Positions 42,127 through 64,000 of a stretch of DNA of 64,000 nucleotides are shown piece by piece. Numbering within the stretch: the first letter of the stretch is position 1; each line of letters begins with the position of its first letter. The position numbers and the translations under genes were made by a program. A model generated the notes under the pieces. It saw only the letters and a list, made by a program, of their open reading frames with translations. It was not told where the DNA came from and did no database searches. Origin of the DNA: a virus (taxonomy: Duplodnaviria; Caudoviricetes); the IMG/VR virus record IMGVR_UViG_3300014039_000027, positions 16,713 through 80,712 of that record; one strand, written 5' to 3'.

Positions 42127-42134
42127 CCTTCACT

Positions 42135-47019: not shown

Positions 47020-47243
47020 TTCTCTTCCTCCCGCTTCAATATTCCCATGTCAACACACAGGTCGATCAGTTTGTCATCGTTCAGTTCTATGGCTCGCTTC
47101 GCAATTTCTGTCAGATAGCCGTTGAGCAGAGCAAGTCCAATGCCTATGCTAAGAGCGTTTTCTCTTGCCGCATTGCTCCTGCTTGCACTCACCGTCCTGT
47201 CGATCTTCTCGACCAAGTTGTTGTAGTCCATTTTCACTCTCAT
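47016..47243 (-). CDS. Hypothetical protein
   Basis: 75-aa coupled ORF. Confidence 0.55.
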   Translation of the reverse strand: MRVKMDYNNLVEKIDRTVSASRSNAARENALSIGIGLALLNGYLTEIAKRAIELNDDKLIDLCVDMGILKREEEK

Positions 47244-47638
47244 GCCCGTTCCTCCATCATCCTTGCCATCCTCATATCCAGCGGTTCCCCGCGGAACTTT
47301 ATCTCCGGCGCAAAGGTCGTCATGCTCTTTGGCCTGCTGCTCACGCGCATCTTGTAGCGCTTCTCAAATTCTCTCGCATACCACTCCCAGAAGATATACC
47401 CGTAAGGATTTCCTTCGTTGTGGCTCTGCAGCGCAAGCAAATGGCACATTCTCCGGTTCCATATAACGGCGACATCACCATCTCGCGGTGCAGGAATATA
47501 CGCCGCCGGTTCCCAGCCGTATAACCGCCTGGTGTGCAAGCACCACGCCTTAGTAAAGATCAGGCGGCTCATACCGCCCATGCCGGTCGTGTAATACTCT
47601 CTCAGGTTCTCAGTAAGCCTACGGTTTATTGATGGCAT
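47240..47638 (-). CDS. Hypothetical protein
   Basis: 132-aa ORF with GGAGGTG RBS. Confidence 0.55.
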   Translation of the reverse strand: MPSINRRLTENLREYYTTGMGGMSRLIFTKAWCLHTRRLYGWEPAAYIPAPRDGDVAVIWNRRMCHLLALQSHNEGNPYGYIFWEWYAREFEKRYKMRVSSRPKSMTTFAPEIKFRGEPLDMRMARMMEERA

Positions 47639-47675
47639 ATCATCTCACCTCCAAGCGATAGCGCCAGTGCCCATC

Positions 47676-48749: not shown

Positions 48750-48759
48750 CGGCATCACC

Positions 48760-49068
48760 TCACAGGCAGAACTGAAGGTAGTCCCGCAAAGTCTGCTTCG
48801 CACGGTTCACGCTCCGGCTGACCGTGCTCTTATTCACGTCGTGCAGCTCCGCGATCTCCGTCACGCTCATGCCACCCTCGTACATCTCGCTCAGATACAC
48901 CCACTGCTCATCGCCCAGTTTCAGAGCCGCTTTCGGGAAGTGCCGCCGCAGCCGAAGCAAAACGCCGCGGTTCGCCTCCTGGTCCAGTTGCAAAACATCC
49001 AGACGCCCCTCCAGCACTTCGTCCAGCAGGACCTCCGTAGCCACGCCCCCCATCTTCCGTGTAGTCAT
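48760..49068 (-). CDS. Sigma-70 region 4-like HTH protein
   Basis: MSVTEIAELHDVNKSTVSRSVNRAKQTL. Confidence 0.7.
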   Translation of the reverse strand: MTTRKMGGVATEVLLDEVLEGRLDVLQLDQEANRGVLLRLRRHFPKAALKLGDEQWVYLSEMYEGGMSVTEIAELHDVNKSTVSRSVNRAKQTLRDYLQFCL

Positions 49069-49070
49069 GT

Positions 49071-49490
49071 TCACACATCCTCCCTGCCGTGGTAGCTCCT
49101 CACGAACTCGCACTGCGCCTCGGCATAGCTTTCCGGTAACGACACCACGAAAGAAGCGATTGAGAAATAGTAGCCACCATTGCCCCCATCCGCATTGGCC
49201 TCGATCATACAGATTGCGTTACGGTTGTGCATGATAGTCACTCGCGCCTTGCAGCCATAGGTATCATCATCTTCCCACGGCTCATATTCTATGTCAGATA
49301 CCGCGGTAATGGCCGCATCCAGTTTCACGCCTGAGAACTCCGAGTCAACTCCTGCACAGCAGTCCCAGTCTGTCCTTTCAACTTGCAATTTCAGCCCTGT
49401 ATCTAATTCAATGTGATACTCACCCCATGCCACGATTTTCCGGTACAGTAGCAATTCTTTCAGTTCTTCAAAGTTGATTATTTTTCTCAT
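49071..49490 (-). CDS. Hypothetical protein
   Basis: DWDCCA...NADGGNGGYYFS; start MRKIINF. Confidence 0.6.
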   Translation of the reverse strand: MRKIINFEELKELLLYRKIVAWGEYHIELDTGLKLQVERTDWDCCAGVDSEFSGVKLDAAITAVSDIEYEPWEDDDTYGCKARVTIMHNRNAICMIEANADGGNGGYYFSIASFVVSLPESYAEAQCEFVRSYHGREDV

Positions 49491-49504
49491 TTCACGGTCC
49501 CTCC

Positions 49505-50143
49505 CTATACTTCGTCGCCCCAACAGTCCCAGCCGTCCGCCTGCTGTCTGGCAAACAGCTCGATGCGGGATATGTCTCCCATCAATTCCACGATCCGGTC
49601 TCTTACCTCGTCTGGCTTCCGGCTGTGCTCTCTCACATGGTTCAGCACCACACTGTGTACGCCCTTGCTCAAACGCTTCGGCTTGCCCCTTGTCGCCAGC
49701 AGGCACAGCTCCGCGTTGGCCCTGGTCCAGAACCCCAGCCCCCAAAACAGCCCGTCCGACTTCCGGTTCTGCTTTACCCATGTAAACGCGCAGGTCTTAT
49801 AGGTAAAGCCCCATTTGCGTATCAGCTCTAAGCCCTCTTCCAAACACGGCATCGTCACCCACAGAAACAGTACGCAGTCCTCCGCCGCTATGCCCTGCAC
49901 CGGCAGCGCCTGAATGTCCTCTTTACTCATGCAGGCGTAGTGGTTTTCCGCAGACTTCTTTTCCTTGCCCTTCGCGCTGTATGTCTTAAACGTCCACGGC
50001 GGGTCCGCATAGATCACGCTGTGCTTCTTATCAGTCTCCAAAATGTCTACTACCATATCCAAAGCACTCCCTCGATCTAACTTGCCGATCATTCGCTCCC
50101 GGCCCTTTGACAAAAGGTAGTCTAATCGCCGTGTCAAGGACAC
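49505..50143 (-). CDS. MT-A70-family adenine methyltransferase (true start uncertain)
   Basis: IYADPPW, LFLWVT, WGFTYKT, TRAN.E.CL, HSRKPD, RIELFAR. Confidence 0.88.
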   Translation of the reverse strand: MSLTRRLDYLLSKGRERMIGKLDRGSALDMVVDILETDKKHSVIYADPPWTFKTYSAKGKEKKSAENHYACMSKEDIQALPVQGIAAEDCVLFLWVTMPCLEEGLELIRKWGFTYKTCAFTWVKQNRKSDGLFWGLGFWTRANAELCLLATRGKPKRLSKGVHSVVLNHVREHSRKPDEVRDRIVELMGDISRIELFARQQADGWDCWGDEV

Positions 50144-50149
50144 TCCGGA

Positions 50150-51250
50150 ACTTTTTTACCTGCTCCGCACATACACCCCGCCGCAAGACCACAGCACTTC
50201 CACCGCCGCCGCACAAAGGCCGTACCTCTCCATCACATATATGGCGCTTGCGCCCGCCGAAATTTTAATTTTTCGACCCCGCCCCTTTGGCCGTTTCGTT
50301 TTTTCGCTCCGGTTTCAAAACCACCCCCCTACCCCCTAACTTGCCGGTAACTTGCGCGAGCAGCGCTAATGTGTGTCGGGGAGAGGATCGTGGGAGAAAC
50401 AGGGAGGGAACGTGTACGGGAGGGGGAGAGTTGCGTAGCAGAGAGAAAAGGCTTCGCCCTTCCGGTTTGTAAACCTCCCCCGGGGGCTGCCCTGGGGCGG
50501 TCAGGTGGTGCCGGTGGTAGTCAGCGGGTGCCGCTGGCCGTCATTCCTTCCGGGTTTTGCAGGAAAAGCGCCCGCCGCCGGGGAACATTCCTTTCCATAT
50601 TGCCCTAATATGGAAAGGGATGTCCCGATTTTCGCAAGTTTGCCTTCATTTTGCATTTTTTCGACGTTTTTAGCGCCTGCCGCTGGCCCTGGCGGTGGTC
50701 CTCGCTGGTGGTCAGATTGTCCAGTTCATAGGCCGGGGCGCTCGCCGCCGCTGCCGGTCGCCGCCTGTCAGCCGTTCGGCCCGGAACATAGGCCGCCGGG
50801 TGACTCTCCTTCCCTCCCCTCGCCGCTGCTCTTTTCTTCCGGTCAGCGCTTCCCGCTGATGGTCTCCGTCCTGCTCCGGTGTTCTTCTGCTTTGGGCGTT
50901 CTGCTGGGGGCTTTGGCGTCCGGTTCTTCTCTGCTGGTGGTGTTGTATACGGGAGTATATTTTTCTTTAATTCAACCGCGCCCGGAATAAACGCGCGCGC
51001 ACGCGTAAGGGCTGGCGGTGGTCTTTCCTGCTTCTTTGCCCTCTGCGGGGCTGCTGGTGGCGTTTTTCTTTGGGGGCTGGTGTCGGGGTATTCCCTCGAC
51101 GCTGCAAAAGCGTAGCGGGGCGTTTCTGTTCGATTTCTTTATTTCCGGAGGTAAATTCCTTCCAGCGAAAACGGCATAAAATAAGTACCTACGGGGCCGG
51201 GGGTTTCGGGCCGTAGGTACTGGCGGGGGCTTCTTCTGTTGTCTGCTCAT
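50150..51250. other. Largely non-coding region, candidate packaging/genome-terminus zone
   Basis: No credible ORFs; C-rich to G-rich switch at about 50350; AAAACCACCCCCCTACCCCCT and GAAATTTTAATTTTTCG tracts. Confidence 0.45.
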
Positions 51251-51253
51251 GGG

Positions 51254-51529
51254 TCAGGCGGTGACGATCTCGGCGGGGCTGGGGCTGCCGTAGAAGTCTC
51301 CGGCCCACGCCTGGAAAATGCCGCCTTTAGCGCTTACAGCTGTTACCCATCCGGCCACATTGGCGGCGACGCGGCACGGGACGCGGGGGAAGTGCTGGCC
51401 CACGTCAAGCCAAACGGGCACGCCGTGCGCTGCTGCGGCTCTGATCTCGGCGGCGGTGTAAAGCCGCGCTTTTCCCTCTGGGGCGATGTTGTACAGGTTC
51501 TCCGGGCTGGTGGTGTTGTTGGTCGTCAT
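51254..51529 (-). CDS. Hypothetical protein
   Basis: MTTNNTTSPENL, AGGAG RBS. Confidence 0.55.
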   Translation of the reverse strand: MTTNNTTSPENLYNIAPEGKARLYTAAEIRAAAAHGVPVWLDVGQHFPRVPCRVAANVAGWVTAVSAKGGIFQAWAGDFYGSPSPAEIVTA

Positions 51530-51572
51530 GGTGTCTTGTCTCCTTCCTGCGCCCTGCTGGGCGCGTCCGTGG

Positions 51573-52175
51573 TCAGTCCTGGGCGTCCTCCTGCTGCGCG
51601 TGGTAGCGGTCGCGCATGGCGTACAGGCGGCGCGAAATGGTGGACCGGTCAACCATCAGCGCGGCGGCGATCTCCGCCGTAGTGTACCCGCGGGCGGTCA
51701 TGGTCAGGGCTACGCGGTCCACCTGGTCGCGGGCGACGCTCTCCACGCTCTCGCGCAGGATCGCGGCGGCCTCCGGGCTGGGTGCTATCGCGTTGCAGTC
51801 CGTCCCGCCTTCGGTGTCGATCTGCCAGCGCTCCGCGCCGTCGTCGTCAATGGTGGCGGAAATGGCGCGGGCGTGTCTCTGCTCGGCTCTGCTGATACTG
51901 TGCGCGGCCTGGGCTGCTGCCCGGTACAGGATCACCGTCAGCGGCGCGGGCGCGTCCTGGGCTTCGTTGCGCGTCAGCGCGGCGCCCATCCGCGTCCATG
52001 CGTCCGCGGCTACGGTCTGCGCGTCGTCCTCGGTCTCGATCCACGCGGCGCCGGTCTGGTTGCGGGCCTCTGCCTTGCGGCGCACAGTCCACGCCATCGC
52101 CACAAGCGCCCTATACTGTTGTTCCCCGGTCATGGTCTCCCACTCGGCGCGGGCGGTCTTGGTGTTCTCGTTCAT
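51573..52175 (-). CDS. ECF-like sigma-70 factor
   Basis: Region 2-like EDDAQTVAADAWTRM; region 4 GYTTAEIAAALMVDRSTISRRL. Confidence 0.6.
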   Translation of the reverse strand: MNENTKTARAEWETMTGEQQYRALVAMAWTVRRKAEARNQTGAAWIETEDDAQTVAADAWTRMGAALTRNEAQDAPAPLTVILYRAAAQAAHSISRAEQRHARAISATIDDDGAERWQIDTEGGTDCNAIAPSPEAAAILRESVESVARDQVDRVALTMTARGYTTAEIAAALMVDRSTISRRLYAMRDRYHAQQEDAQD

Positions 52176-52248
52176 GGTCTGTTGTCCTCCTGTATAGTAG
52201 TTATAGGGCGGGGCTGATACGCTCAACCCCTCCGGAAGCGCCAGGCGG

Positions 52249-52449
52249 CTACCCTTCCACCGTTTCCACGGTCAGCCGGACCGCCTCGAAATCTGTAATT
52301 AGACCGCGGGCGCAATCCTCTAAAATCGTTTGTAGTTTCCCGGCCTTCCGTGCCCATTCCCGAGCGTCGCCGCCCTGCTTCCAGACTTCCAGCAGCTGCC
52401 GCCGTTCCGCTGTAATAAATTCCCTGGTGTATCGCTTCATTTTCTCCAC
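52249..52449 (-). CDS. Small hypothetical protein
   Basis: 66 aa with AAGGAGG RBS. Confidence 0.6.
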   Translation of the reverse strand: MEKMKRYTREFITAERRQLLEVWKQGGDAREWARKAGKLQTILEDCARGLITDFEAVRLTVETVEG

Positions 52450-52453
52450 CTCC

Positions 52454-52630
52454 TTAAAAACTGGGCTGCAGCCGAATTTCCCACGTTCCGCAGATGTCGC
52501 CCGCGGCGTTCTTCCGGGCCTTCTTCAGGGCCTTATCGATCGCCGCCGCCTTGTCCGGGGCGCTCACGGTAAACGCCTGGTGTTTGCCGCCGTTGTCCAC
52601 GCAGTGAAAAGAGAATTTGTAGTTTGTCAT
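52454..52630 (-). CDS. Small hypothetical protein
   Basis: MTNYKFSFHCVDNGGKHQAF; GGAGG RBS. Confidence 0.6.
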   Translation of the reverse strand: MTNYKFSFHCVDNGGKHQAFTVSAPDKAAAIDKALKKARKNAAGDICGTWEIRLQPSF

Positions 52631-52748: not shown

Positions 52749-52777
52749 TTGACAAAATCAAAAAATCGTGTTATCAT
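52749..52777 (+). promoter_or_regulatory. Rightward sigma70 promoter
   Basis: TTGACA-17-TATCAT with extended -10 TG. Confidence 0.7.
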
Positions 52778-52841: not shown

Positions 52842-53087
52842 ATGGACGCAAGCCGCGCAACTCGTCATTTGCTCGTTGATTCCGGCATCCGTGAAGCCGA
52901 ACTTGCAAGGCGTATTGGCGTCGCCCCGCAAAACCTCAACACCCGGCTAAAGGCTCCGCAAAATTGGCGTGTTGACGACCTGGGCAAAATTGCCGCCGCC
53001 TGCGGTGCCCGTTTTGTTTGCGGGTACGAGACCGCCGCCGGGGATTTTATCGAGATCACCCCGACCGCCAACACCCCCACCACCTGA
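52842..53087 (+). CDS. XRE-like HTH regulator
   Basis: REAELARRIGVAPQNLNTRL; GAGGTG RBS. Confidence 0.75.
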   Translation: MDASRATRHLLVDSGIREAELARRIGVAPQNLNTRLKAPQNWRVDDLGKIAAACGARFVCGYETAAGDFIEITPTANTPTT

Positions 53088-53190
53088 ACAGCCGCCCCGG
53101 AAAAATGCGGGGCAAAACACGAACAGCGCCCCCGGAGATTTTCCGGGAGCGCTTTTTTCATGCCCTGAACAGGGCGGAAAGGAGAACACC

Positions 53191-53403
53191 ATGCAAGAGA
53201 AGATCGAAATCCGCGGACGCTTTACCCCCTGGCACGAGGCCACCAAGGAACAGGCCGCCCAGCTTGCCCGCCACCATTTGCACAATCTGCCCGCCATCCC
53301 GGAGGCCCAGCGCCCCGCATACATCGAGGCGCATTTCCTGCGCGGCGCGACCTGCGCGGAAGTCCTGCCGGAACTGACCACGAAGGAGGCCACCGCCCTA
53401 TGA
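53191..53403 (+). CDS. Small hypothetical protein
   Basis: AAAGGAG RBS; 70 aa. Confidence 0.65.
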   Translation: MQEKIEIRGRFTPWHEATKEQAAQLARHHLHNLPAIPEAQRPAYIEAHFLRGATCAEVLPELTTKEATAL

Positions 53404-53501
53404 CCGTCTTTTCCTACATCGTCACCGCCACCGGCGCCGCCACCCTGGCGGCGCTTTTTGTTCGCCTGCTGGACCGGATCGACCGCCCCGGCAAGCGCTG
53501 A
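53400..53501 (+). CDS. 33-aa single-TM peptide
   Basis: ATGA-coupled; MTVFSYIVTATGAATLAALFVRLLDRIDRPGKR. Confidence 0.45.
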   Translation: MTVFSYIVTATGAATLAALFVRLLDRIDRPGKR

Positions 53502-53619
53502 ACAGCCGCGGCGCCGCCTCTGGGGAGTTGGGCGCACCAGCTCCACCCCATCGAGAAAAGTAAAATTCACTCCGCCATTGACACGGGCGGCAGACTACAC
53601 AACAGGAGGAACAAACGAC

Positions 53620-54900
53620 ATGAACACCAACAAAACCGAGTCCATCCGCTTTTTCTGGAACGGCATCAAGGTAAACGGCGGGAAGCTGATCCGCTGTTTC
53701 TACCTCACCGACAGCAGCAGCGACAGCGTGACCATCAGCGCCCGCGATTATGACCATCTCCCCCGCGACCTGTTCACCGTCAAGAACGAAACCGACCTTT
53801 ACACCGACTATTTCGACAGCGACAGCGCCACCATCACCCCGGCGCACCCCCTCTACAAGTACGCCCGCGCCGCCGCCCTCAAATCCGCCATGCGCGGCGA
53901 GCCTGAGTATATCGCCAAGCTGGAACAGGAGGCCCAGGACGCCCAGCGGCCGGGCCGCTACCACTGGCGCACCGTGGACAGCATCCGCGCCGAGATCGAC
54001 CGGCGGCAAGCGCAGCTTGACCGCAACGCCGTCGAGCTGGCCACCCTGCCCAAGGGCCACCCCACCGCCGCCGACGTGGCAGCCGTCCACGAGATGAACA
54101 CCGCCGCCGAGTCGGCGCGGCTGGCGCGTGAACACGCCGCCGAGCTGGAACGCCGGGAAAAGGCCATCCGCACCCGCAACGAAAACCGCGCTTTCATCGA
54201 GCAGACCGCCGCCGCGCACCCCATCCAGGACGGCGCCCCGGTCGTCACCGTGGAATGGAGCGAAAACGGCGCTTTTGTGGACGGCGAAAAATTCTCCGTC
54301 GCCGCCGCTGAGATCATCTTCAAGACCATTGACGAGAAGATACACAGCGACCCGGAGCGCGGCTACGACAAAACCAGCTTTTCCATTGAGTACACCAACG
54401 CCGACGGCGAACAGGACACATATAAAGGCCGTTATGACCTGGGCGACAATGACGGCGGCCTGATCGCCCACATTCGCAGCTTCGGCGAGATGTACCGCGA
54501 CAGGGGCAGCCGCAACGACGGCAAACCCACCGCCGACGAACAGGAGACCGGCGCGGCCATCGTCGCCGTGGCCGATCTGCTGGAGCAGTACACCGAGGGC
54601 GGGCGCGTGGTCTCCGTCATGCCAGCGCCTTGGCTGGAAGAATACCAGCGCCGCAAGGCCGAACAGGCACAGCAGGAGCAGAAACAGGCCCGCCAGGACT
54701 TCGCCGACATCCTGGAATCCGTGGAAATGCTGACAGATGAACAGATCGAGCGCGTGATCTTCGCCATCAGCCCCACCGATAAAGAGAAAATCGACGTGGC
54801 CCGCTTCTTCCTACAGGAGCTCAGCCGCCGCGACGAGGCAAACGCCCTGGCGGTGTTCCGCCGCTGGAAGCGCGGGGAAACTCCCGAACAGCCCGACTAA
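53620..54900 (+). CDS. Large polyvalent-type protein with LPD25-like domain
   Basis: PVVTVEWSEN...GYDKTSFSIEY....Y.GRYDLGD..GGLIAHI; AGGAGG RBS. Confidence 0.65.
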   Translation: MNTNKTESIRFFWNGIKVNGGKLIRCFYLTDSSSDSVTISARDYDHLPRDLFTVKNETDLYTDYFDSDSATITPAHPLYKYARAAALKSAMRGEPEYIAKLEQEAQDAQRPGRYHWRTVDSIRAEIDRRQAQLDRNAVELATLPKGHPTAADVAAVHEMNTAAESARLAREHAAELERREKAIRTRNENRAFIEQTAAAHPIQDGAPVVTVEWSENGAFVDGEKFSVAAAEIIFKTIDEKIHSDPERGYDKTSFSIEYTNADGEQDTYKGRYDLGDNDGGLIAHIRSFGEMYRDRGSRNDGKPTADEQETGAAIVAVADLLEQYTEGGRVVSVMPAPWLEEYQRRKAEQAQQEQKQARQDFADILESVEMLTDEQIERVIFAISPTDKEKIDVARFFLQELSRRDEANALAVFRRWKRGETPEQPD

Positions 54901-54946
54901 ACCGAACAGGGGCGGCCCAGCGCCGCCCCGGAAAGGAGCCGACAAA

Positions 54947-55123
54947 ATGAACACCTACCAGCGCCGCAAGGACGCCGCCCGCGCCCAGGCCATCCAATGG
55001 CAAGCCGACTTTTCCGACCGTTCCATGCCGTGGGCGGCCATTGCCGCCGAACAGCAGCGCCTTGAACAGCTGGCCCGCCGCTATGGCCTGGTCCGCGAGT
55101 TCCGCGAAAACGCCATCATCTGA
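54947..55123 (+). CDS. Small hypothetical protein
   Basis: MNTYQRRKDAARAQAIQWQ...RYGLVREFRENAII; AAAGGAG RBS. Confidence 0.65.
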   Translation: MNTYQRRKDAARAQAIQWQADFSDRSMPWAAIAAEQQRLEQLARRYGLVREFRENAII

Positions 55124-55142
55124 ACAGCAGGGAGGAAACCGC

Positions 55143-55376
55143 ATGAACAGCCAGAACAGCAGCGCCGCACAGCCTATTGTAAATGTGATCGTATGCGTCA
55201 AGGGCGGCCTGGTGCAGAGCGCCTATACAAACGCCCACGGCGTAACCGTCAATTTTGACGTGGTCGACCTTGACATGAGTAATTCCCCGGATGATGCCGA
55301 ACTGGACGAGCAGGGGCAAAATCTGGAAATGATTGCCCGCATTGAACACGATCCCAACTGGAGAGCCATCTACTAA
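55143..55376 (+). CDS. Small hypothetical protein
   Basis: VIVCVKGGLVQSAY..V..DVVDLD; GGAGG RBS. Confidence 0.65.
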   Translation: MNSQNSSAAQPIVNVIVCVKGGLVQSAYTNAHGVTVNFDVVDLDMSNSPDDAELDEQGQNLEMIARIEHDPNWRAIY

Positions 55377-55439
55377 ACCGATCAGGGGCGGCCACGCCGC
55401 CCCTCCACAAACTGAACAGCCACGAAAGGAGCCCACACA

Positions 55440-56270
55440 ATGTCTACCATCGAAAACGCCATCCCGGAGACGACCGCCGTCCGCGCCCACTGCGACACCA
55501 TCGCCGCCCTTGCCGCCATGCTGAAAAACGTTGTCACCAGTGACCCCACCGGCGACACCGCTACCAACGCCCTTTCCGCCATCCGCAACAGCCTGAACGA
55601 GCTGGAGACCTACGCCGAACAGCGCCGCCAGCAGAACAGCGAAAAGCGCGACGATACCCCCTATAAGCACGTCTATTTCCGCCTGAACTCCGGCTACGAA
55701 TGGGGCAGCGGCATGAGCCAGGACAAAACCGAAAACTTCTACAGCGACATTCTGGCCCTGTTTGCCGCCGAGGGCTGGACGATCACCCAGCCGTACCGGC
55801 AGGGCAGCGGCGCCACCGTCGCCAACGGGAACAGCTCCCTTTACATCCACCCCCAGAACGCCAGCGGCTACGTCACCGAGGATCTGATCCCCGCCGTTTC
55901 CGCCGCGCTGGAACACGGCTGCACCTTCAAGCACTACGCCACCGACATCTACAATACCGCCTATAACTGGACGGCGCAGCAGTACCGGGACTACCTGAAC
56001 AGCAAGCGCGGCTACATCAACGCCGCCCTGCTGGAAGTTTTCAAAACGCCCCGGCGAAACCTGTATAAATTCGACTACAACGCCCTGCCCGTGGTCATCA
56101 GCAAATTCCACGTCCAGCGCCTGGACGGTCAGAACGGCCATTGCACCGGCGACGTCACCGAGCAGGTCATCCGCGAAATGTTCACCGCCCTTGTGAACAC
56201 CGGCAAGATCGACAAGGGCGAGACTAAGCACGGCACCGCCTACCGCACCGCCCCCAGGCGGCGCACCTGA
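55440..56270 (+). CDS. Hypothetical protein
   Basis: 276 aa; AAAGGAG RBS. Confidence 0.7.
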   Translation: MSTIENAIPETTAVRAHCDTIAALAAMLKNVVTSDPTGDTATNALSAIRNSLNELETYAEQRRQQNSEKRDDTPYKHVYFRLNSGYEWGSGMSQDKTENFYSDILALFAAEGWTITQPYRQGSGATVANGNSSLYIHPQNASGYVTEDLIPAVSAALEHGCTFKHYATDIYNTAYNWTAQQYRDYLNSKRGYINAALLEVFKTPRRNLYKFDYNALPVVISKFHVQRLDGQNGHCTGDVTEQVIREMFTALVNTGKIDKGETKHGTAYRTAPRRRT

Positions 56271-56286
56271 GCAGAAAGGAGCCATC

Positions 56287-56508
56287 ATGCCCACACGGAT
56301 CAAAACCCGCGCCGCGTCCACGGAGCAGGAGCGCCAGCAGCTTCTTTCTGCCGCTGCCGCCCTCCGCACCGCCGCGCCGTACCTCAACGCCGAACAGCGC
56401 CAGCGCGTCTGTCAGGCGGCGGAGCGCTGCATTGAACAGCACCGCCGCACCACCCACACCGCCGAGCTGGCCGCGCTTATCGCCCAGCGCGACGCCCTCT
56501 CCGCCTGA
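56287..56508 (+). CDS. Small hypothetical protein
   Basis: 73 aa; AAAGGAG RBS. Confidence 0.6.
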   Translation: MPTRIKTRAASTEQERQQLLSAAAALRTAAPYLNAEQRQRVCQAAERCIEQHRRTTHTAELAALIAQRDALSA

Positions 56509-56536
56509 CCCCCCCACACGAAAGGAGCGCCCCACC

Positions 56537-57283
56537 ATGACACCCGAAAAGCTTTTGGAAAATCTCTACGCCATCGCCTACTCCCTCCCGGAGACCGAGC
56601 GCCGTTTCTTCTGCGCTCTCGAACCCGCCATCGACACCGGCACCTACGGCGAGATCAACGCCGGTCATCAGCTGGCGCTCCTGGTCCGCGCCATCCGTAC
56701 CGACATGGCCCAGCAGTACCAGCGGGACGACAAGCGCCGCACCAGCGCCGCCGCCATCCGCCGCATCGGCAGGGCCTCCGCATCCAAGCAGGGTAAACTC
56801 CGTCCCCACTTCGCTGGCGCGTTTCTGGACGAACAGGGCCGCCAGTGCATCACGGACGGCTTCACCCTCCTGCGCCTGAACAAGCCCTCCAATGCGCTGC
56901 AATGGGCGCCGCAGCCCAACGATTCCCACGTCTACGACACCATCCCGGAGCTGCTGAACGCCGACGGCGCCACCGTCACCCTCAACCTCCCCACGGCGGC
57001 AGAGGTCCGCGCCAAGATCGCCAGCGACAAGGCAAAATTCAAAGCCTCATCCCCTCCCAAATACGAAATCTTCTCCACCTGCTTCAGCTGGGGCGACGGC
57101 CTTCCGCTGGTCAACGCCCTTTACCTTCTGGACATTCTGGAGGCGCTTCCCGGCTGCACCGCCGCCTGCCGCCCCGGTGAACTGTCCTGCGTCTACTTCC
57201 ATAGCCCGGACGGCGACGCCCTCATCATGCCCATCCGCAGACACATCGCCAACAACGCCGACGAACAGGAGGAACAGGAATAA
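56537..57283 (+). CDS. Protein with sliding-clamp (DnaN)-like motifs
   Basis: RPHFAGA....GRQCITDGFTLLRL and VNALYLLDILEAL...DALIMPIR. Confidence 0.5.
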   Translation: MTPEKLLENLYAIAYSLPETERRFFCALEPAIDTGTYGEINAGHQLALLVRAIRTDMAQQYQRDDKRRTSAAAIRRIGRASASKQGKLRPHFAGAFLDEQGRQCITDGFTLLRLNKPSNALQWAPQPNDSHVYDTIPELLNADGATVTLNLPTAAEVRAKIASDKAKFKASSPPKYEIFSTCFSWGDGLPLVNALYLLDILEALPGCTAACRPGELSCVYFHSPDGDALIMPIRRHIANNADEQEEQE

Positions 57284-57591
57284 TGTCACACATCTGCAAA
57301 ATGACCGGAATGGAGGCCGTGCTGCCCTGCGCCGCGCCCCAGTGCCCCGCTTACGGCGATTGCGCCGCCGCCTACGAAAAGTCCCAACAGGGCTTCCATC
57401 TGGAACAGCACCCCAAAACAAACCTGGAACACTTCCGCGAAATGACCGCCGAGCAGCTGGCGGCGTGGATCATGTGTCCCTACTCCATCGATCCCGACAC
57501 CTGCCGTGGCAAGGAATGCCTCAAATGCTGCACCGACTTCCTCAACGAACCCTATCAGGGCTTCGACCTCGCCCCCGAACAGCAGCCCTAA
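57283..57591 (+). CDS. Cys-rich hypothetical protein
   Basis: TNLEHFREMTAEQLAAWI..CPY...C...C..FLNEP. Confidence 0.65.
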   Translation: MSHICKMTGMEAVLPCAAPQCPAYGDCAAAYEKSQQGFHLEQHPKTNLEHFREMTAEQLAAWIMCPYSIDPDTCRGKECLKCCTDFLNEPYQGFDLAPEQQP

Positions 57592-57713
57592 AACAGCGAA
57601 CAGGAGCGCCAAAAGCGCTCCTGTTTTGTCGTAATTTCCACAAAACGCCCTTGCCATTGCCGCCTGAATGTGCTATTCTGACGGTAACAACAGCAAGGAG
57701 GCCAACAACGCCT

Positions 57714-58163
57714 ATGACACGAGAAGAATTTATTTTTGCCGCCCACAGCATCCTGCCCTACAGCTTTGAGGACACCAACGCCGCCCTGGACCGTGCCTTT
57801 GCCACCTCCCCGGAAAAACAGGCGTACACGCCCCACGACGTACAGGCGCTGGACATCGCCCTCCGCCTTTCCGGGGCATCGCCCGAGCTGTCCGGTATCG
57901 TCATGGACGAGCTGGACATTGAACCGCTTTCCGCCCCCGAACAGCAAATGACCGCCGCGCAGTTCATCGACGAGGCGGAGCGCCAGGGCTTCCCCCGCCG
58001 CCTTGCGGAGCTGGTGACGCAGCACAGCGAACAGGAGACCTACGACATGGCGGACCTGGACGGCCTCGGCCTTCTCGATCTCGTCATCACCCCGGACCGC
58101 TACGACGACCCGGAGATCCACAAAACCATGCAGACCATTTTCTCCGTTTTCGACGGGGAGTAA
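57714..58163 (+). CDS. Acidic hypothetical protein
   Basis: 149 aa, about 30 D/E versus 9 K/R; AAGGAGG RBS. Confidence 0.65.
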   Translation: MTREEFIFAAHSILPYSFEDTNAALDRAFATSPEKQAYTPHDVQALDIALRLSGASPELSGIVMDELDIEPLSAPEQQMTAAQFIDEAERQGFPRRLAELVTQHSEQETYDMADLDGLGLLDLVITPDRYDDPEIHKTMQTIFSVFDGE

Positions 58164-58195
58164 TGATAATTCAAAACCGAAAGGGGAACAAAACT

Positions 58196-58684
58196 ATGAC
58201 CACAAACTACACTTGCCCGGAATGCGGCGCATCCATTACGCAGGATTATCTCTGCGTGCACGATATGTGCCCGTCCTGCGGCTGTCCCGCCGCCACCATC
58301 TACGCCGCCCAGCAGGAAAAGGACGCGCAGGAACGTCGCGAAAGCCTCGCTAAAGAGGCCGCCGCAGCCGCCGCCCTGCCCAAGACCTCCGATGTTCGCT
58401 ACAAAACCAGCGCCGCCAATATGCTTGAGGTGTTTGCGTACATCGTCTGGGTGTGCGGCGGTATCAGCGTCATCGCCATCGCCATTTTGGCCAGCCAGCT
58501 TCGCTACTCCTACTATTCCTCCGGGACAACAGGCACCACTATGTTTTTCTTGGCCGTTGCCGTCGCCACCTCCGCCTTGTTTTTTGGAGGTCTGCTCTAC
58601 GGAGCGTCTAAACTGCTCATCGACGTTCACGCCACCCGCGTAAATCTGGAACAGCTCAACGAGAAGAAGGAGGCGCAGCAGTAA
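58196..58684 (+). CDS. Zn-ribbon membrane protein
   Basis: CPECG..CPSCG plus two TM helices. Confidence 0.7.
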   Translation: MTTNYTCPECGASITQDYLCVHDMCPSCGCPAATIYAAQQEKDAQERRESLAKEAAAAAALPKTSDVRYKTSAANMLEVFAYIVWVCGGISVIAIAILASQLRYSYYSSGTTGTTMFFLAVAVATSALFFGGLLYGASKLLIDVHATRVNLEQLNEKKEAQQ

Positions 58685-59505
58685 TGGCCCTCAAGACCTG
58701 TCCCCACTGCGGCCACAGCGTCAGTGACCAGGCCACAAAGTGCCCCTCCTGCGGCAAGGACCCCCGCTACACCGATTTCCAGCTTGAGCAGCAGGAACAG
58801 CAGCGCAAGAAAAAGCGCAAAAAGAATTTCCTCATTTTGGGATCGGCCCTTGCGGTCGTTTTGGCGGTTCTCTGCGTTATCTATATTCCTCGTTACATCG
58901 AGTATTCCCAAAAGATGAAGGCATACAGCGAGGCGCAGGCTTTTTACGATTCCAGCGAATATGTCTCCGCGGTCAGCTCATTTGAAGCCTTGGGAGATTT
59001 CAAGGATTCCGCACAGAAGGCATTGGATTCCCGGTATCAGTACATACGTGCAACCAAGAGCCGCACAGATCCTGTCACAGAAAAATATATAGAATACCTT
59101 ACCTCAAAAAACTACCCCGACATCCAATCTCTCGCAGACAGCATCTACGGCTGGAAATTCAAAGCCTATGTTACCGACTCCGCATATGGATACCCTGTAT
59201 ACAGCACATTTGGGAAGGACAGCCCTTTGTACGTCAGGTTTACGGCTTTCGGTGGGAAACAGGGCGAGGAGATTTCGGTAGAATATTGGGCCGATTATTA
59301 TGTATCTCCCTACGCTGCCAGTTTGGGATACTCCGATAAAACAGAAAGCGGCGCGATTCCTTATAAAATCAGAAATGGCGACAGTTTCTGGGTTGGTTGG
59401 GAACGCGGAGTCGGCACGATCAAATACAGCCGAGTAAAATTTACGTTTTATAATGCCGCTACACTCGAAACGCTTGCCATCGCCGAAGCTTATATCTCTG
59501 GATAA
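58684..59505 (+). CDS. Zn-ribbon, single-TM protein with extracellular domain
   Basis: CPHCG..CPSCG; KKRKK then TM; AT-rich 3' half. Confidence 0.7.
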   Translation: MALKTCPHCGHSVSDQATKCPSCGKDPRYTDFQLEQQEQQRKKKRKKNFLILGSALAVVLAVLCVIYIPRYIEYSQKMKAYSEAQAFYDSSEYVSAVSSFEALGDFKDSAQKALDSRYQYIRATKSRTDPVTEKYIEYLTSKNYPDIQSLADSIYGWKFKAYVTDSAYGYPVYSTFGKDSPLYVRFTAFGGKQGEEISVEYWADYYVSPYAASLGYSDKTESGAIPYKIRNGDSFWVGWERGVGTIKYSRVKFTFYNAATLETLAIAEAYISG

Positions 59506-59562
59506 AACAGCACACCCCGCACGGCATCCGCCGCGCGGGGGTTCTTTTCTCAAAAATTTCTC

Positions 59563-59611
59563 TTGACATTTTGGGCTACATAAACTATAATCATTTTATG
59601 GGCTACATAAA
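59563..59611 (+). promoter_or_regulatory. Consensus promoter overlapped by a direct-repeat operator
   Basis: TTGACA-17-TATAAT; TGGGCTACATAAA at 59572 and 59599. Confidence 0.8.
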
Positions 59612-59625
59612 GTGAGGTGAATAAT

Positions 59626-59793
59626 TTGAGTCCACGCACAGGACGCCCGAAAGCCGAAAATCCGAAGTCTAATCCTCTCCACGTCCGCCTTGACGACAAA
59701 ACACTGGCAGTTCTGGACGAATACTGCAAGCGTACCGGCAAGAAACGCACGGAGGGCATACGCGACGGTATCATGCTGCTTCCGGGTAAATAA
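59626..59793 (+). CDS. Ribbon-helix-helix (CopG-like) regulator
   Basis: TTG start with GAGGTG RBS; SPRTGRPK...VRLD......LDEYC...G..R.E.IR.GI. Confidence 0.7.
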   Translation: MSPRTGRPKAENPKSNPLHVRLDDKTLAVLDEYCKRTGKKRTEGIRDGIMLLPGK

Positions 59794-60011
59794 AAAAGCA
59801 GAGCGCTCCATCCGACCAAAGATCAGCGCTCCGCTTTCCGCCAGCACCGCATGGGTGCCGTCTAAATCTCATTATAGACGCCGCCCCTGCGAAAGTCAAC
59901 AGCTTTCCGCAGGGGATTTTTGCGCTCATTTTTGGAAATCCACCTTCGGAGTCCCTTGACACGGCGGGTAGCATACTGACTACCAAAGATAAACCGAAAG
60001 GAGATAACCCC

Positions 60012-60806
60012 ATGAATGAGTTATTGACCATTAGCAACGGCCAGCCTACCGCCAGCAGCCGCGACATCGCGGAGCACTTTGGCAAGGAACACAAGAATGT
60101 ACTGCGCGACATTGACACGCTCAAAAAAGATGTGCTCAATTTTGAGCAGATGTTCTTCGAGACTGAAATTCCCGACAGCTACGGCAGACCGCAGCGAGCC
60201 TACCTCATGAACCGCGACGGCTTCACGCTCCTTGCTATGGGCTTCACCGGCAAGGAGGCACTGGCGTGGAAGATGAAGTACATCAACGCTTTCAATGCGA
60301 TGGAGCAGGAATTGCGCTCCCAGCAGCAGGGCCTGACCGAGGCGGACTTCTCTGCCCTCTCCTACGAAGCCCGCGCCATCATCAAGATGGAGCTTCAGCA
60401 GAAGCAGCAGGCGAAGCAGATCGCCGAATTGACCACCCAGCAGCAGGAAACGCGCACGATGGTGAATCAGACGCTCTCTGCTATTACCCGCCCCTCCACC
60501 TCCGATGCGGAGGAATGGAAAGAAGACGTCAACCACACTATCCGCCAGATGTGCGAGGAATACGGCCTGAACTACCACACTACCATCGGAGATATGTACG
60601 CGGAGTTGGAGAAACTGGGCAGCGTTGATCTCACCCGGCGGCAGGCAAACCTACAAACCCGTATGCGCCGCGGAGGCGCTACAGTTGCCGAGTGCCGAGG
60701 CGTCAGCAAACTCCATGTCATTTCACAGGACAAGAAACTGCGCTGGTTTTACGAGGGCATCATTCGTGCCCACCGCGCCCAGCTTGCCGCCTCCCGTATG
60801 TGCTGA
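60012..60806 (+). CDS. Rha-family phage regulatory protein
   Basis: SSRDIAEHFGKEHKNVLRDI; YLMNRDGFTLLAMGFTGK.A..WK.KYI.AFN.ME. Confidence 0.9.
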   Translation: MNELLTISNGQPTASSRDIAEHFGKEHKNVLRDIDTLKKDVLNFEQMFFETEIPDSYGRPQRAYLMNRDGFTLLAMGFTGKEALAWKMKYINAFNAMEQELRSQQQGLTEADFSALSYEARAIIKMELQQKQQAKQIAELTTQQQETRTMVNQTLSAITRPSTSDAEEWKEDVNHTIRQMCEEYGLNYHTTIGDMYAELEKLGSVDLTRRQANLQTRMRRGGATVAECRGVSKLHVISQDKKLRWFYEGIIRAHRAQLAASRMC

Positions 60807-60869
60807 TTACGCCCCGTATACCCCGCTATTCATCCCACACATCACTTATACAATAGGAGGAAACCTACC

Positions 60870-61088
60870 ATGACAGTCCGAGAAATCTGCGCCGTCCTTG
60901 AATTTGCCGATGCCGAAAAGTCTCGCATCGATCTTACGTTCGGCGCGAACTCAGTTCCCTTTAACCCTGCCAACGACCTTGAGGTGCTGGCCTACGGCGA
61001 TTTTGTTATTGACTCCTGCCACGTCTGGGAGGGCGGCGTTGAACTTGTCCTCAAGCAGCAGTTCGTCAAGAAAGGCGGCGCAGCATGA
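60870..61088 (+). CDS. Small hypothetical protein
   Basis: 72 aa; AGGAGG RBS. Confidence 0.65.
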   Translation: MTVREICAVLEFADAEKSRIDLTFGANSVPFNPANDLEVLAYGDFVIDSCHVWEGGVELVLKQQFVKKGGAA

Positions 61089-61249
61089 TCCCCTCCACCA
61101 TCCACCTGGGCGATACCGTCACCCGCCGTATCGCCGACACCGAGAAAAAAGCCACCGGCACGGTGGTCTACATCCATCCGGAGCGCCGCTATTATGTGGT
61201 CGAGTTCCGCATGAAATACGGCAGCTTCCGTGAGGGCTACAACGCCTGA
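61085..61249 (+). CDS. Small hypothetical protein
   Basis: ATGA-coupled; GTVVYIHPERRYYVVEF. Confidence 0.6.
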   Translation: MIPSTIHLGDTVTRRIADTEKKATGTVVYIHPERRYYVVEFRMKYGSFREGYNA

Positions 61250-61507
61250 AAAATTTTTTCAAAAATCTGCAAAAGTGTCCTTGACACGGGGCGCATACTT
61301 AAAATTGCCGAAGGGGACACCCCTCCCCAACGGCTTCGGTGTACCCCCCGAATTATATATGCCCGTCCGTAAGAAGGGCAGCGCCGGTCTTACATCCATT
61401 CTTCCGGCGTCCCCAGCGCAATTCTGGCCGGAACGCGGCCACGGGGGCGCGAGCCCCTTCCGCCGCACGTCAGCTCGCCCACCAGGACGTAAACAAGGTG
61501 GGGATCC

Positions 61508-61583
61508 GGTGTCGTAGCTCAGCTGGCAGAGCAGCCGCCTTGTAAGCGGCAGGTCGTGGGTCCGATCCCCACCGATACCTCCA
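61508..61583 (+). tRNA. tRNA-Thr(UGU), atypical T loop
   Basis: GCCGC-CT TGT AA-GCGGC; acceptor GGTGTCG/CGATACC, U73, CCA; T loop TCCGATC. Confidence 0.85.
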
Positions 61584-61767
61584 AGCCGCCCGTTGGGGTT
61601 CTCGTGCGAGTATCATAACATGGCAGATAGGCCCGCCGCCCAGTCCCGCCCACTATCGGGCACCAGGAGAAGCGTCGGGGCTGCCGGCTAAATGGCGTCA
61701 CCCAGCGCCATAAGAGAACGAGGCTTCCGCCGCGCCGCTAAAGCGGGATATGGCGCGGCACCCATCC

Positions 61768-61840
61768 GCAGACGTAGCTCAGCCGGTAGAGCACCGCGCC
61801 AGGAGGTATGTCGTTGGTTCGAGTCCAACCGTCTGCACCA
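61768..61840 (+). tRNA. tRNA-like RNA with collapsed anticodon arm (pseudo-tRNA)
   Basis: Perfect acceptor GCAGACG/CGTCTGC, D and T arms and CCA, but no canonical 5-bp/7-nt anticodon arm. Confidence 0.7.
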
Positions 61841-61847
61841 ATAGGCG

Positions 61848-62150
61848 TGACCTCTTGCCTCGCAGCCGCACGGAGCGTAAGCCTGCGAAAGTGGTCTTTC
61901 CTGTGCGCTGTACGAAAGCGGCAGGACGAAGTAATTTATTTATTGGCTGGCACCGGCCTTGTAAAGATGAACGGATGCGACCGACGTACCGGCGCAGGGC
62001 TGAAAAGTTCCGTGGTTGGTTCGGGCGCCGGCGTGTGCGGCGAAAATCCGAGGCGAAAATAGCAGATATGGACGCGGCGTGGTAGCGGCTGCCTTCGGGC
62101 AAGGCCGCTGTGTAGGTCAGTAGCTACCCGCGCCGGTGCCCCGCCAACTG
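61848..62150 (+). ncRNA. Candidate multi-branched structured RNA
   Basis: Long-range GGCACCGGC/GCCGGTGCC helix, nested stems, GNRA- and UUCG-type loops. Confidence 0.55.
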
Positions 62151-62166
62151 TGTCCCAACAAAACTC

Positions 62167-62240
62167 GCAGCGTTTGTGTAATGGTAGCACATCGGTCCTC
62201 CAAACCGATAGTGGCGGTTCGAATCCGCTACGCTGCTCCA
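62167..62240 (+). tRNA. tRNA-Gly(UCC) with C33
   Basis: TCGGT-CC TCC AA-ACCGA; acceptor GCAGCGT/ACGCTGC, U73, CCA. Confidence 0.85.
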
Positions 62241-62310
62241 GCCCGGTCTATCCGGGCGCCCACCCCCACCGGGGAGGCGGGCATCCCCCAGCCCCCTCCC
62301 CACTCTCTAC

Positions 62311-62455
62311 GCAGGATCGCCGTCGGGGCGCTTGCACGGCACACACAGAGATCTCCTTTCTGCTGCTGTTTGGACACATCAACACCTCCATTGTTCATGT
62401 CATCTTTTCCGTGTGCCGGCAAGCCATGCGGGTTCGACTCCCGCCTCCTGCTCCA
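62311..62455 (+). ncRNA. 145-nt tRNA-like RNA with extended anticodon helix and 66-nt loop
   Basis: Acceptor GCAGGA/TCCTGC-U-CCA, mini D arm CGCC/GGCG, T arm GCGGG-TTCGACT-CCCGC, helix CTTGC-A-CGGCACAC/GTGTGCCG-GCAAG. Confidence 0.7.
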
Positions 62456-62629
62456 CCGGGCGCGACAGGCGCCCGCGGTCCAGATAGGACCTCCTTTATA
62501 GATGCCGCGGCTGTAAGAAGCGGCACCGGGTTTTGTTCATTTTCCCCGGCTCCTGTTGGAATACAGGCAGGCCAAGCGATTTCTCCTTCCGGGCGGCGCG
62601 GTCTGGGCAGCCGCGCCGTCCAACCCCCT

Positions 62630-62705
62630 GGGGGATTAGCTCAATCGGCAGAGCAGGCGGCTCATAACCGCCCGGTTCCGGGTTCAAGTCCCCGATCCCC
62701 CACCA
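62630..62705 (+). tRNA. tRNA(CAU), probably Ile2 (lysidine type); elongator Met not excluded
   Basis: GGCGG-CT CAT AA-CCGCC; acceptor GGGGGAT/ATCCCCC, A73, CCA. Confidence 0.85.
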
Positions 62706-62758
62706 GCCGCAAGGCGATAAAACATTTCAGCTATTTTAACAGAAAGGAGGCACATCCC

Positions 62759-63034
62759 ATGACCAAGAGCGAGTTCATCACCACTCTGGCAGCAGCGACC
62801 GACATGAAGAAGTCCGACGTCGAGCGCGTGATCGCCGCCGCTACCAACACCCTCACCGGCGTCATGCGTTCCGGTGACAGCGTGAATATCTCCGGCTTCG
62901 GCATCTTCACCAGCAAGGTCCGCGACGCCCACCCCGGCAAGAACCCCGCCACCGGCGAGACCATCACCATCCCCGCCAAGCGCGTGGCCATCTTCAAGCC
63001 CGCCAAGCAGCTCAAGGACGCCGTCAACAGCTGA
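62759..63034 (+). CDS. hup: HU-family DNA-binding protein
   Basis: MTKSEFI...GDSVNISGFGIF...GKNPATGETITIPAKRVAIFKPAKQLKDAVN. Confidence 0.95.
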   Translation: MTKSEFITTLAAATDMKKSDVERVIAAATNTLTGVMRSGDSVNISGFGIFTSKVRDAHPGKNPATGETITIPAKRVAIFKPAKQLKDAVNS

Positions 63035-63066
63035 CGGCGCAGGGCCGTACCCACACAAAATATCCC

Positions 63067-63108
63067 ACAGAACCAGCCGGACGGCACACCGCCCTCCGGC
63101 TTGTTTTG
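63067..63108 (+). terminator. Probable terminator after hup
   Basis: AGCCGGA-CGGCACACCGCCC-TCCGGCT followed by TGTTTT. Confidence 0.55.
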
Positions 63109-63118
63109 TAAGCCATAT

Positions 63119-63141
63119 TTCCGTTGCGTTTTGAATATCAC
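63119..63141. repeat. Third copy of the 23-nt motif found at 4348-4370
   Basis: TTCCGTTGCGTTTTGAATATCAC, exact match. Confidence 0.85.
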
Positions 63142-63196
63142 AACGCAGCTTCACAACAAAACTTGCGAAACCTCTTACGAAAAGGAGAAACACAAC

Positions 63197-64000
63197 ATGA
63201 TCTACTTCGACAATGCCGCCACCACGCCGGTCCTGGACTGCGCGTGGGAAGCTATGCAGGAAGCCCCATTTGCCAACCCCTCCAGCAGCCACGCGGAGGG
63301 CCGTGTAGCGAAAGCCGCCCTTGAGAACGCCCGCAGCACCATTGCGTCCTGTCTGAACTGCCGCCCCAGCGAGGTCTACTTCACCAGCGGCGCCACCGAA
63401 GCGTGTAATTGGATGGTTAGGTTCCTTCGTCTTTCCTCCGACGGCATTATTTACAGCGACACCGTTCATCACGCCGTCAGCGAGGCTATCCACGCCTATT
63501 CATCCCCCAACGCGCCCCGCGGCAAGCCCTCCGCCATCCTCTCCCTTGTCAACAATGAAACCGGGCAGATAAGCGATGTGTACGCTTTCCGCCGTCAGAA
63601 CCGCCTCCACCGCATCGGCATAGACGCCACCGCCGCCGTTGGCCACATCCTCGTGAACTTCCGCGCTCTGGGCGCGGACTACATGGCCTTTGGCGGCCAC
63701 AAATTCGGCGCTCCCAAGGGAATCGGCGCACTGATCGTCCGGGAGGGCTGCCCCATCTCCCCCATGATCTTCGGCGGCGCACAGGAGCGTGGTATGCGCG
63801 GCGGCACGGTCTCCGTTCCTCTGGCCGCAGCTATGGCCGCTGCCCTTGCGTGGCACACGAAAAACATGGCCGTCAACGCCATACAGATTCACAAGGTCCG
63901 CACCCAGCTCATTTTCGACCTGGCCCAGCTGGGCGTGGACCACATTGTCAACCTCAACGACGGCCACCGCCAGTTTGCCGACCACATCCTCTCCCTCCGC
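63197..64000 (+). CDS. iscS: Cysteine desulfurase (IscS/NifS family), divergent, truncated by the window end
   Basis: MIYFDNAATT, ANPSS.H..G, FTSGATEA.N, VNNETG, DA.AAVG, GHKFGAPKGIGAL, RGGT; AAAGGAG RBS. Confidence 0.9.
   Translation, partial: MIYFDNAATTPVLDCAWEAMQEAPFANPSSSHAEGRVAKAALENARSTIASCLNCRPSEVYFTSGATEACNWMVRFLRLSSDGIIYSDTVHHAVSEAIHAYSSPNAPRGKPSAILSLVNNETGQISDVYAFRRQNRLHRIGIDATAAVGHILVNFRALGADYMAFGGHKFGAPKGIGALIVREGCPISPMIFGGAQERGMRGGTVSVPLAAAMAAALAWHTKNMAVNAIQIHKVRTQLIFDLAQLGVDHIVNLNDGHRQFADHILSLR

Follow-up and report, generated by a model that had tools for sequence, protein, structure and literature searches.

Why should a word of six letters recur dozens of times on one strand of a few kilobases of a phage genome and be missing from that strand everywhere else? 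This question is raised by the GAACAG array of a tailed phage known from the IMG/VR virus record IMGVR_UViG_3300014039_000027. The window analysed here is a stretch of 64,000 nucleotides, bases 16713-80712 of the 80,712-bp record, and positions below are those of the window. Through a motif search, we found 34 copies of GAACAG on the plus strand at 53086..58800, which are all the plus-strand copies of the whole record, and 36 copies on the minus strand of the record, dispersed at background level. For the block, 1.7 copies are expected from base composition, 1.8 from a first-order Markov model and 4.2 from a second-order Markov model. The results showed that GAACAG is the top enriched hexamer of the block, with a local excess of about 19-fold, and that a single opposite-strand copy lies within it (53770..53775, minus strand), where about one is expected. 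The original prediction, made by a model from the letters, had described a polar motif limited to this region, with 34 copies, 33 of them followed by C or G, and an expectation of about 1-2 per strand. Our search bore out this description (the base that follows is C 21 times, G 12 times and A once), apart from one mistyped coordinate (55414, not 55413) and a second-order expectation above the predicted range.

Neighbouring copies are 9-620 bp apart, which amounts to about one copy per 170 bp, or about six per kb. A larger repeat unit was looked for in the array and not found. No conserved flanks were detected within ±40 nt of the word in four lineages, so a longer motif or a promoter partner was ruled out, and the information is confined to the hexamer.

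In the block, 13 genes were called via start codons, ribosome-binding sites and stops; gene calls outside it are heuristic. Relative to these genes, 21 copies are in-frame Glu-Gln codons, five lie in frame +2, three overlap a TGA stop and five are intergenic, which agrees with the predicted spread over intergenic DNA, stops and several frames. One explanation is that the array is a by-product of Glu-Gln-rich, acidic protein composition and codon bias. The 21 in-frame copies are consistent with this, as is the Glu-Gln dipeptide itself (29 in the block against 7.7 expected, 3.8-fold). The same explanation fully accounts for giant LPD25 polyvalent proteins from eight host-family genomes, where an apparent GAACAG enrichment was reproduced by synonymous shuffles. 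The block behaves differently: its non-coding DNA, about 550 bp, holds eight copies against about 0.2 expected (P=5e-11) and is denser in the word than its coding DNA. Within the genes, the 26 copies exceed both the synonymous shuffle (15.2±2.7) and the codon-order shuffle (4.4±2.0), and 0 of 2000 shuffles of either type reached 26. The next co-oriented unit (59563..64000, plus strand), whose third-position C bias is like that of the block and which is therefore a composition-matched internal control, has 0 copies against 1.4 expected over 6,294 bp, its continuation at the record start included. The GAACAG array is not a coding by-product, as the original prediction had held when it called Glu-Gln codons insufficient, and an origin in protein composition, refuted by the intergenic copies and the shuffles, keeps next to no probability.

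Selection on the nucleotides is also visible in the codons and proteins. GAA and GAG precede CAG 21:8 in the block against 57:62 elsewhere (Fisher P=0.02), and several block proteins have C-termini of the form ...PEQPD, ...DEQEEQE or ...PEQQP. Because of the excess over the shuffles, the enrichment of Glu-Gln and the preference for GAA, we conclude that the GAACAG word moulds codon choice and protein sequence alike.

Outside the array, the same orientation is purged. The minus-strand gene domain (1..52630, minus strand), which carries virion, replication, recombination and methylase genes, has 0 plus-strand GAACAG. In the sense of its 79 genes (52 kb), the word would read CTGTTC, which was observed 0 times against 19.5±3.3 expected under synonymous shuffling (minimum 11 in 200 shuffles) and 16.4±3.9 under codon-order shuffling. 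The 43 Leu-Phe pairs of these genes include CTG-TTT 18 times, CTA-TTC 13 times, CTT-TTC six times and CTG-TTC never, in genes that use CTG for 999 of 1305 Leu codons and CTA for 45 of 1305. The other orientation is neutral: sense GAACAG occurs 23 times in the 79 genes against 28.7 expected, and minus-strand copies, of which the phage has kept 35, sit at a neutral level whichever gene domain they lie in. TGTTCG and TGTTCC are likewise absent, and beyond the block few copies of GAACA stand on the plus strand, for which reason the purged core may be GAACA. The close relative G405 repeats the pattern, with 50 copies in its array and 0 in the same orientation in the remaining ~68 kb. A purge on the opposite strand is also left unexplained by protein composition.

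Such a one-sided absence brings restriction to mind. In phage T7, all sites of the Type III enzyme EcoP15I stand in one orientation, and GAACAG, with A at position 5, presumably resembles an asymmetric site of the Type III, Type IIL or BREX-style kind. According to a Type III-like explanation, only inversely oriented site pairs would be cut, one orientation would be purged per gene domain, and the array would be a side effect or a counter-measure. The one-orientation bias is the classical T7/EcoP15I picture, in that one orientation of an asymmetric hexamer is wholly absent from a long run of co-oriented genes, and this phage is under heavy restriction pressure. Avoidance in both orientations was found for GAGCGG (0 against 65 expected), GAGACG (4 against 41) and GAAGAC (1 against 30), and in the minus-strand genes for CGGCCG (2 against 48) and GCGCGC (2 against 34), with CGTACG, ACGCGT, AGGCCT and GGGCCC all at 0. 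T7, however, shows avoidance only, whereas one block of this phage is 19-fold enriched in the very orientation that is missing elsewhere, with 34 plus and 36 minus copies genome-wide, and avoidance cannot yield a local excess of that size. On a circular genome, the array and the 35 opposite copies would form head-to-head pairs, and the same word is kept across many relatives and lineages that come from different samples, whereas restriction specificities are strain-variable. We regard a Type III-like footprint as highly improbable. The original prediction had also suggested decoy sites for a host restriction or BREX enzyme. For a classical enzyme of this kind a decoy is unlikely: the avoided sites vanish in both orientations while minus-strand GAACAG stays neutral, and this disfavours an ordinary restriction target.

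The prediction would have lost its ground if the excess had vanished under shuffling or been absent from homologous regions of relatives, and neither was the case. The array contains the gene of a 426-aa LPD25-domain protein (53620..54900, plus strand), the sole gene common to all array-bearing lineages; the LPD25 domain is typically found in proteins delivered by mobile elements into new hosts. MT835520, a relative in GenBank, carries 50 copies in 9 kb, all on the same strand, and about 25 IMG/VR relatives with 85-90% identical LPD25 proteins (L009-L034) have 4-9 copies per kb over 6-10 kb. The gene content of the relatives is mosaic: each of genes 1, 2 and 5 of the block is present in only 4-5 of the 27, and gene 6 is missing from all of them. 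Single GAACAG sites are gained and lost among them with the density retained. Diverged lineages that have only the LPD25 gene in common (46-55% identity) also carry arrays: 25 copies against 1.6 expected in L036, 18 against 2.2 in L080, 37 against 2.7 in L234 and 15 against 3.3 in L238, and in L240 the array word TGAACAG at 8 against 0.3. The arrays of about 27 close relatives and five diverged lineages thus show a word that is conserved with turnover of its sites. No GAACAG array was found in L232, whose LPD25 protein is 54% identical. When viral contigs were scanned for groups of three close copies, the matches listed were mostly collagen-like or other peptide repeats.

Two sister lineages carry arrays of other words. 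In L241 (39% identity, GC 62%), one strand of a 3-kb stretch has 35 copies of TCCCGC and the other strand three. Ten of these copies lie antisense within real convergent genes, where 1.05 would be expected (P=2e-7) and a synonymous shuffle gives 3.9, and the same orientation elsewhere counts 0 against 3.1 expected. In L235 (41% identity, GC 45%), AATAGTCG was found 9 times where 0.1 are expected, and AGTCG 21 times where 4 are. The copies run on into convergent genes (6 against 1.4 expected), and outside the array AGTCG is found once in this orientation against 7.5 expected. These results showed that the words of L241 and L235 follow the absolute DNA strand, not the sense strand, and persist on that strand across convergent genes. 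The repeats of L244 and L243, tried as arrays of the same kind, turned out to be ordinary intergenic regulatory repeats. In L244 (352-5376), GAACCAT, within AGAACCATC, stands 38-51 nt upstream of each of seven genes, and in L243 GATGTAATGAA occurs five times; both look like phage-specific promoter or operator elements.

The array lies in a clearly delimited place. An AT-rich divergent control region (52630-52841) separates the minus-strand domain from the rightward unit and contains a sigma-70-like promoter (52749..52777, plus strand; TTGACA-17-TATCAT, with TG ahead of the second hexamer). The first gene encodes an 81-aa Cro/C1-type helix-turn-helix (HTH) protein (52842..53087, plus strand), and its TGA stop overlaps the first GAACAG copy. 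It is followed by a terminator-like hairpin with a T run (53125..53160, plus strand), flanked by the copies at 53121 and 53167, and then by about 12 small genes, mostly of unknown function, the LPD25-domain gene among them. A second, internal terminator-like hairpin (57598..57632, plus strand) has one copy within its 5' stem. Directly past the last gene there is a GC-rich hairpin, terminator-like on both strands (59515..59545), and a perfect 12/12 sigma-70 consensus promoter (59563..59591, plus strand) starts the next co-oriented unit, with a Rha-like gene, tRNAs and a cysteine desulfurase-like gene. By these predicted signals, the array fills exactly one promoter-to-terminator transcription unit. 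The original prediction had placed it in an early region, a label that we could not support; because a Cro/C1-type HTH gene comes first and the unit diverges from the replication/virion operon, it may be an accessory or lysogeny-linked unit.

This layout is consistent with a signal in the transcript, by which GAACAG in the operon RNA would bind an antitermination, anti-Rho, stabilising or sponge-type factor, and plus-strand copies elsewhere would be purged as a signal on antisense transcripts of essential genes. The array ends at the new perfect promoter; strong promoter-like sites bound the arrays of L030, L036 and L080 as well as that of this phage; the word is always on the sense strand in this block; the two internal terminators need read-through; and the sense RNA is unusually C-rich and G-poor, like a Rho loading site. 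However, the copies are no more accessible in the predicted RNA than composition-matched hexamers, which favours a reading of DNA over one of RNA. The next unit, of the same composition, has no copies. We found no fixed distance from the copies to start codons, merely a broad 2-3-fold excess upstream of genes, and none to hairpins, and an Rfam search of the block gave no RNA family. A dense array speaks for a weak effect of each copy, a poor fit with the complete purge of single antisense copies, and in L241 ten words were forced antisense into convergent coding genes. The GAACAG array is probably not an RNA signal, and an RNA tag is less economical than a DNA signal; we consider the transcript-level explanation rather unlikely.

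Another possibility is a static array, in which a DNA-binding protein would coat, silence or organise the accessory operon in the style of stoperators, ParB or nucleoid proteins. Candidates for such a reader are the LPD25 protein, HTH proteins and the ECF-sigma-like and Spo0A_C-like proteins of the phage, and head-to-tail assembly would require the uniform orientation. The phage does encode several candidate DNA binders, and the words vary by lineage (GAACAG, TCCCGC, AGTCG) beside one common gene. The precedent is found in Cluster A mycobacteriophages, whose stoperators, bound by a monomeric repressor of the L5 gp71 type, are asymmetric sites oriented with transcription (PMC9283540). Both systems have at least 20 asymmetric sites, with an orientation that follows transcription, downstream of a repressor-type switch, and stoperators work one way only. 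They differ in that stoperators are 13-mers in short intergenic gaps genome-wide, while here a 6-mer fills one unit with 26 of 34 copies in genes, and in that the orientation purged elsewhere in this phage is opposed to transcription, not co-oriented with it. Stoperators also co-vary with their repressor, whereas here the word is constant while the first-gene HTH is exchanged, being present in only 4 of 27 relatives.

The model of the LPD25 protein (predicted local distance difference test, pLDDT, 92.7) matched no solved fold and no DNA-binding fold, with only generic helical-hairpin matches. Its longer homologues have no additional Pfam domain, and neither an Atlas search for a lead on its function nor a literature search for 'LPD25' returned anything relevant. 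PADLOC gave no match for ten block proteins. The LPD25 lineage L232 lacks a GAACAG array, and six base pairs are very few for a protein that binds specifically. Under cooperative binding, lone stray sites should do no harm, yet they are purged. The MT-A70 methylase, as a candidate reader, is present in close relatives; the diverged lineages are known as fragments. A static binding array is, in our judgement, unlikely.

We favour a different reading, which we think about equally likely to be right or wrong: plus-orientation GAACAG would be a strand-specific, position-restricted DNA signal for a one-way machine. We infer a reader that would track along the DNA because one description suits all these results, with the duplex word dense in one zone, harmful elsewhere and, in the other orientation, invisible; what that machine would be is likewise inferred. 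A one-way machine on the phage chromosome would meet the word from its 3' side, moving leftward, and each copy would be recognised with moderate probability, whereupon the machine would stop or change state. With 34 copies, the event would become certain inside the accessory operon. Same-orientation copies elsewhere would be removed, so that nothing is triggered in essential genes, and opposite-orientation copies, never read, would drift neutrally. Late transcription runs leftward too, as does the replication fork that the constant GC skew implies; so would packaging, if it runs along late-gene transcription, and an AddAB-type enzyme reading the 3'-ended strand.

The strands of this genome are distinguished throughout, as seen from the C-richness of the plus strand at third codon positions regardless of gene direction (C3 0.54 in the block, C3 0.58 in the next unit, G3 0.45 in the minus-strand genes). 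The sign of the GC skew is constant over the whole genome, and the AT skew flips with gene direction. This asymmetry most simply suggests one-way replication, or else long single-strand exposure of one strand.

Several points weigh against a polar DNA signal. The array coincides with exactly one predicted transcription unit, and this a transcript-linked signal explains at least as well. The word is always on the sense strand in the window, so that DNA and RNA are separated only by the sister lineages with other words, where the counts are small (6 against 1.4 in L235). The purge is incomplete in G403, a diverged lineage with GAACAG, where 21 kb outside the array hold four copies in the same orientation. 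Each of the machines considered below meets objections of its own.

First, the machine could be a protein-bound one-way barrier to replication forks or RNA polymerase, with a phage-encoded reader, which would explain the purge; we regard this as a doubtful candidate. Like Tus-Ter, RTP-Ter, KOPS and SRS, the array would be a one-orientation DNA signal against a moving machine, with misplaced copies counter-selected, and the constant GC skew suggests forks that all travel one way and arrive at the words from their 3' side, as a fork barrier would have it. Ter sites, however, are 20-30 bp long and few, whereas here a 6-bp word is concentrated in 6-10 kb of phage DNA, and we know of no 6-bp polar barrier. 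The words of L241 and L235, moreover, would face the transcription of convergent genes.

Second, the machine could be an AddAB/RecBCD-type helicase-nuclease with a Chi-like switch, to which we give the same doubtful standing as to the barrier. In form the word suits this, being short, asymmetric and in one orientation in the block (34 plus against 1 minus), and at 6-7 nt it has the length of Firmicute Chi sites, which are 5-7 nt. By analogy, the only published precedent for such a reading would be the Chi-rich temperate phages, E. coli LLS and P1 and Pseudomonas MD8, whose Chi sites are read by RecBCD/AddAB, are almost uniformly oriented and lie together in one part of the genome, 20 of 23 in LLS and 32 to 0 in MD8 (Zheng et al. 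2025, PMC12315714). Those phages and this one have in common a short asymmetric word in near-single orientation, clustered, most frequent among oligomers of its size, and with copies expected to come and go. The differences are considerable. The word is about ten times denser here, at 6 per kb compared with about 0.5 in those phages, the array is not adjacent to the terminase, and elsewhere in this phage genome the array's orientation is subject to a strict exclusion that Chi function does not predict. Unlike the Chi-rich lambdoids, which are without a recombination module of their own, this phage has a RecT-like gene (32570-33598) and a RecE-like exonuclease gene (36247-36909), and it also encodes an SSB-like protein and a Holliday junction resolvase.

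The original prediction had further proposed a Chi-like AddAB stop or a KOPS/SRS-like signal for DNA entry, to be tested by polarity in the host chromosome. As candidate host we took one Dysosmobacter metagenome-assembled genome holding a related contig, of which 260 kb were analysed; the assignment, from one genome bin, is weak. In this weakly assigned host, GAACAG ranks 99th for excess, with no Chi-like over-representation, and 0.59 of its copies stand on the G-rich strand, a skew that GAGCAG, GAAGAG and GAACGG share and that is at the 88th percentile of hexamers. Within the limits of this weak assignment, the host shows no polarity of GAACAG and the proposal is not upheld, whereas KOPS and SRS are chromosome-wide and strongly skewed in their hosts.

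Third, the machine could be the packaging motor, which we consider quite unlikely. The original prediction had set the array beside a candidate genome end. The two record ends, however, share 99 bp (window 63902-64000 and record 1-99), of which 98/99 are identical, and because of this overlap the 'end' is where the assembly cut a circular or permuted genome. The portal and likely terminase (15.4-19.2 kb) lie ~33 kb from the array. In small relatives, the short LPD25 unit adjoins and diverges from the small-terminase gene (L235:9000-10000, L239:8959-10001, L241:701-3116), and for that reason it probably lies at the packaging start there, so near the physical DNA end.

Beyond the control region, the minus strand carries, from the right, ECF-sigma-like, MT-A70 methylase and PAPS-reductase-like genes, followed by Ant, the RecE-like exonuclease, RecT, SSB, a DnaD-like loader, the DnaB helicase and a C5-methylase interrupted by HNH, and leftmost by a Spo0A_C-like protein, the portal and virion genes; an integrase is encoded on the plus strand at 40.8-41.9 kb. 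The C5-cytosine methylase (25508-27840, minus strand) is split over two reading frames, with an HNH endonuclease and an HTH inserted. Three minus-strand products, the ECF-sigma-like protein (51573-52175), the Spo0A C-terminal-domain protein (21221-21829) and a 104-aa protein (48760-49074), are candidate phage transcription regulators in a host that is likely spore-forming; the L080 homologue of the 104-aa protein lies inside an open reading frame with a sigma-70 region 4 match. The PAPS-reductase-like gene near the MT-A70 methylase (47676-50056, minus strand), the methylase itself and the cysteine desulfurase-like gene (63101-64000, plus strand), which crosses the record junction, resemble parts of DNA sulphur- or base-modification systems. 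About 1.2 kb at 50060-51250 gave no convincing gene call on either strand; its GC is 0.62 and its local GC skew near zero, and it could be a non-coding element or an origin. Rfam matched an int-alpA small RNA in the virion gene region (14488-14554, minus strand) and, in the tRNA cluster, a fourth tRNA-like element (61768-61837, plus strand) that is not among the ARAGORN calls.

A literature search for the GAACAG word gave only primers and unrelated matches, and within the literature searched the statement of the original prediction that no description was known holds. The same-orientation purge outside the array, the filling of a single unit and the arrays of other words in sister lineages are new here. 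As a possible though tentative generalisation, they would represent a new class of cis-element: a 'one-way zone' of 3-10 kb with dozens of copies of a lineage-specific word (GAACAG, TCCCGC, AGTCG) whose orientation is excluded elsewhere, and with a phage-encoded reader, possibly the LPD25 protein, whose gene always lies within the zone. Such a zone would halt forks, nucleases or polymerases that come from one side into an operon of accessory or anti-defence genes.

Each known kind of oriented DNA word, be it Chi, KOPS, Ter or the stoperator, exposed a machine that reads DNA directionally. Here selection has been strong enough to rewrite Leu-Phe codons genome-wide and to place a word every 170 bp in one operon, and no known reader fits. 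An array together with a purge of the same orientation is a simple computational signature, which can be searched for in all phage genomes. The array operon consists of fast-shuffling genes of unknown function around an LPD25-domain gene, and the signal may bear on how phages of gut Clostridia establish infection or protect, isolate and diversify their accessory genes.

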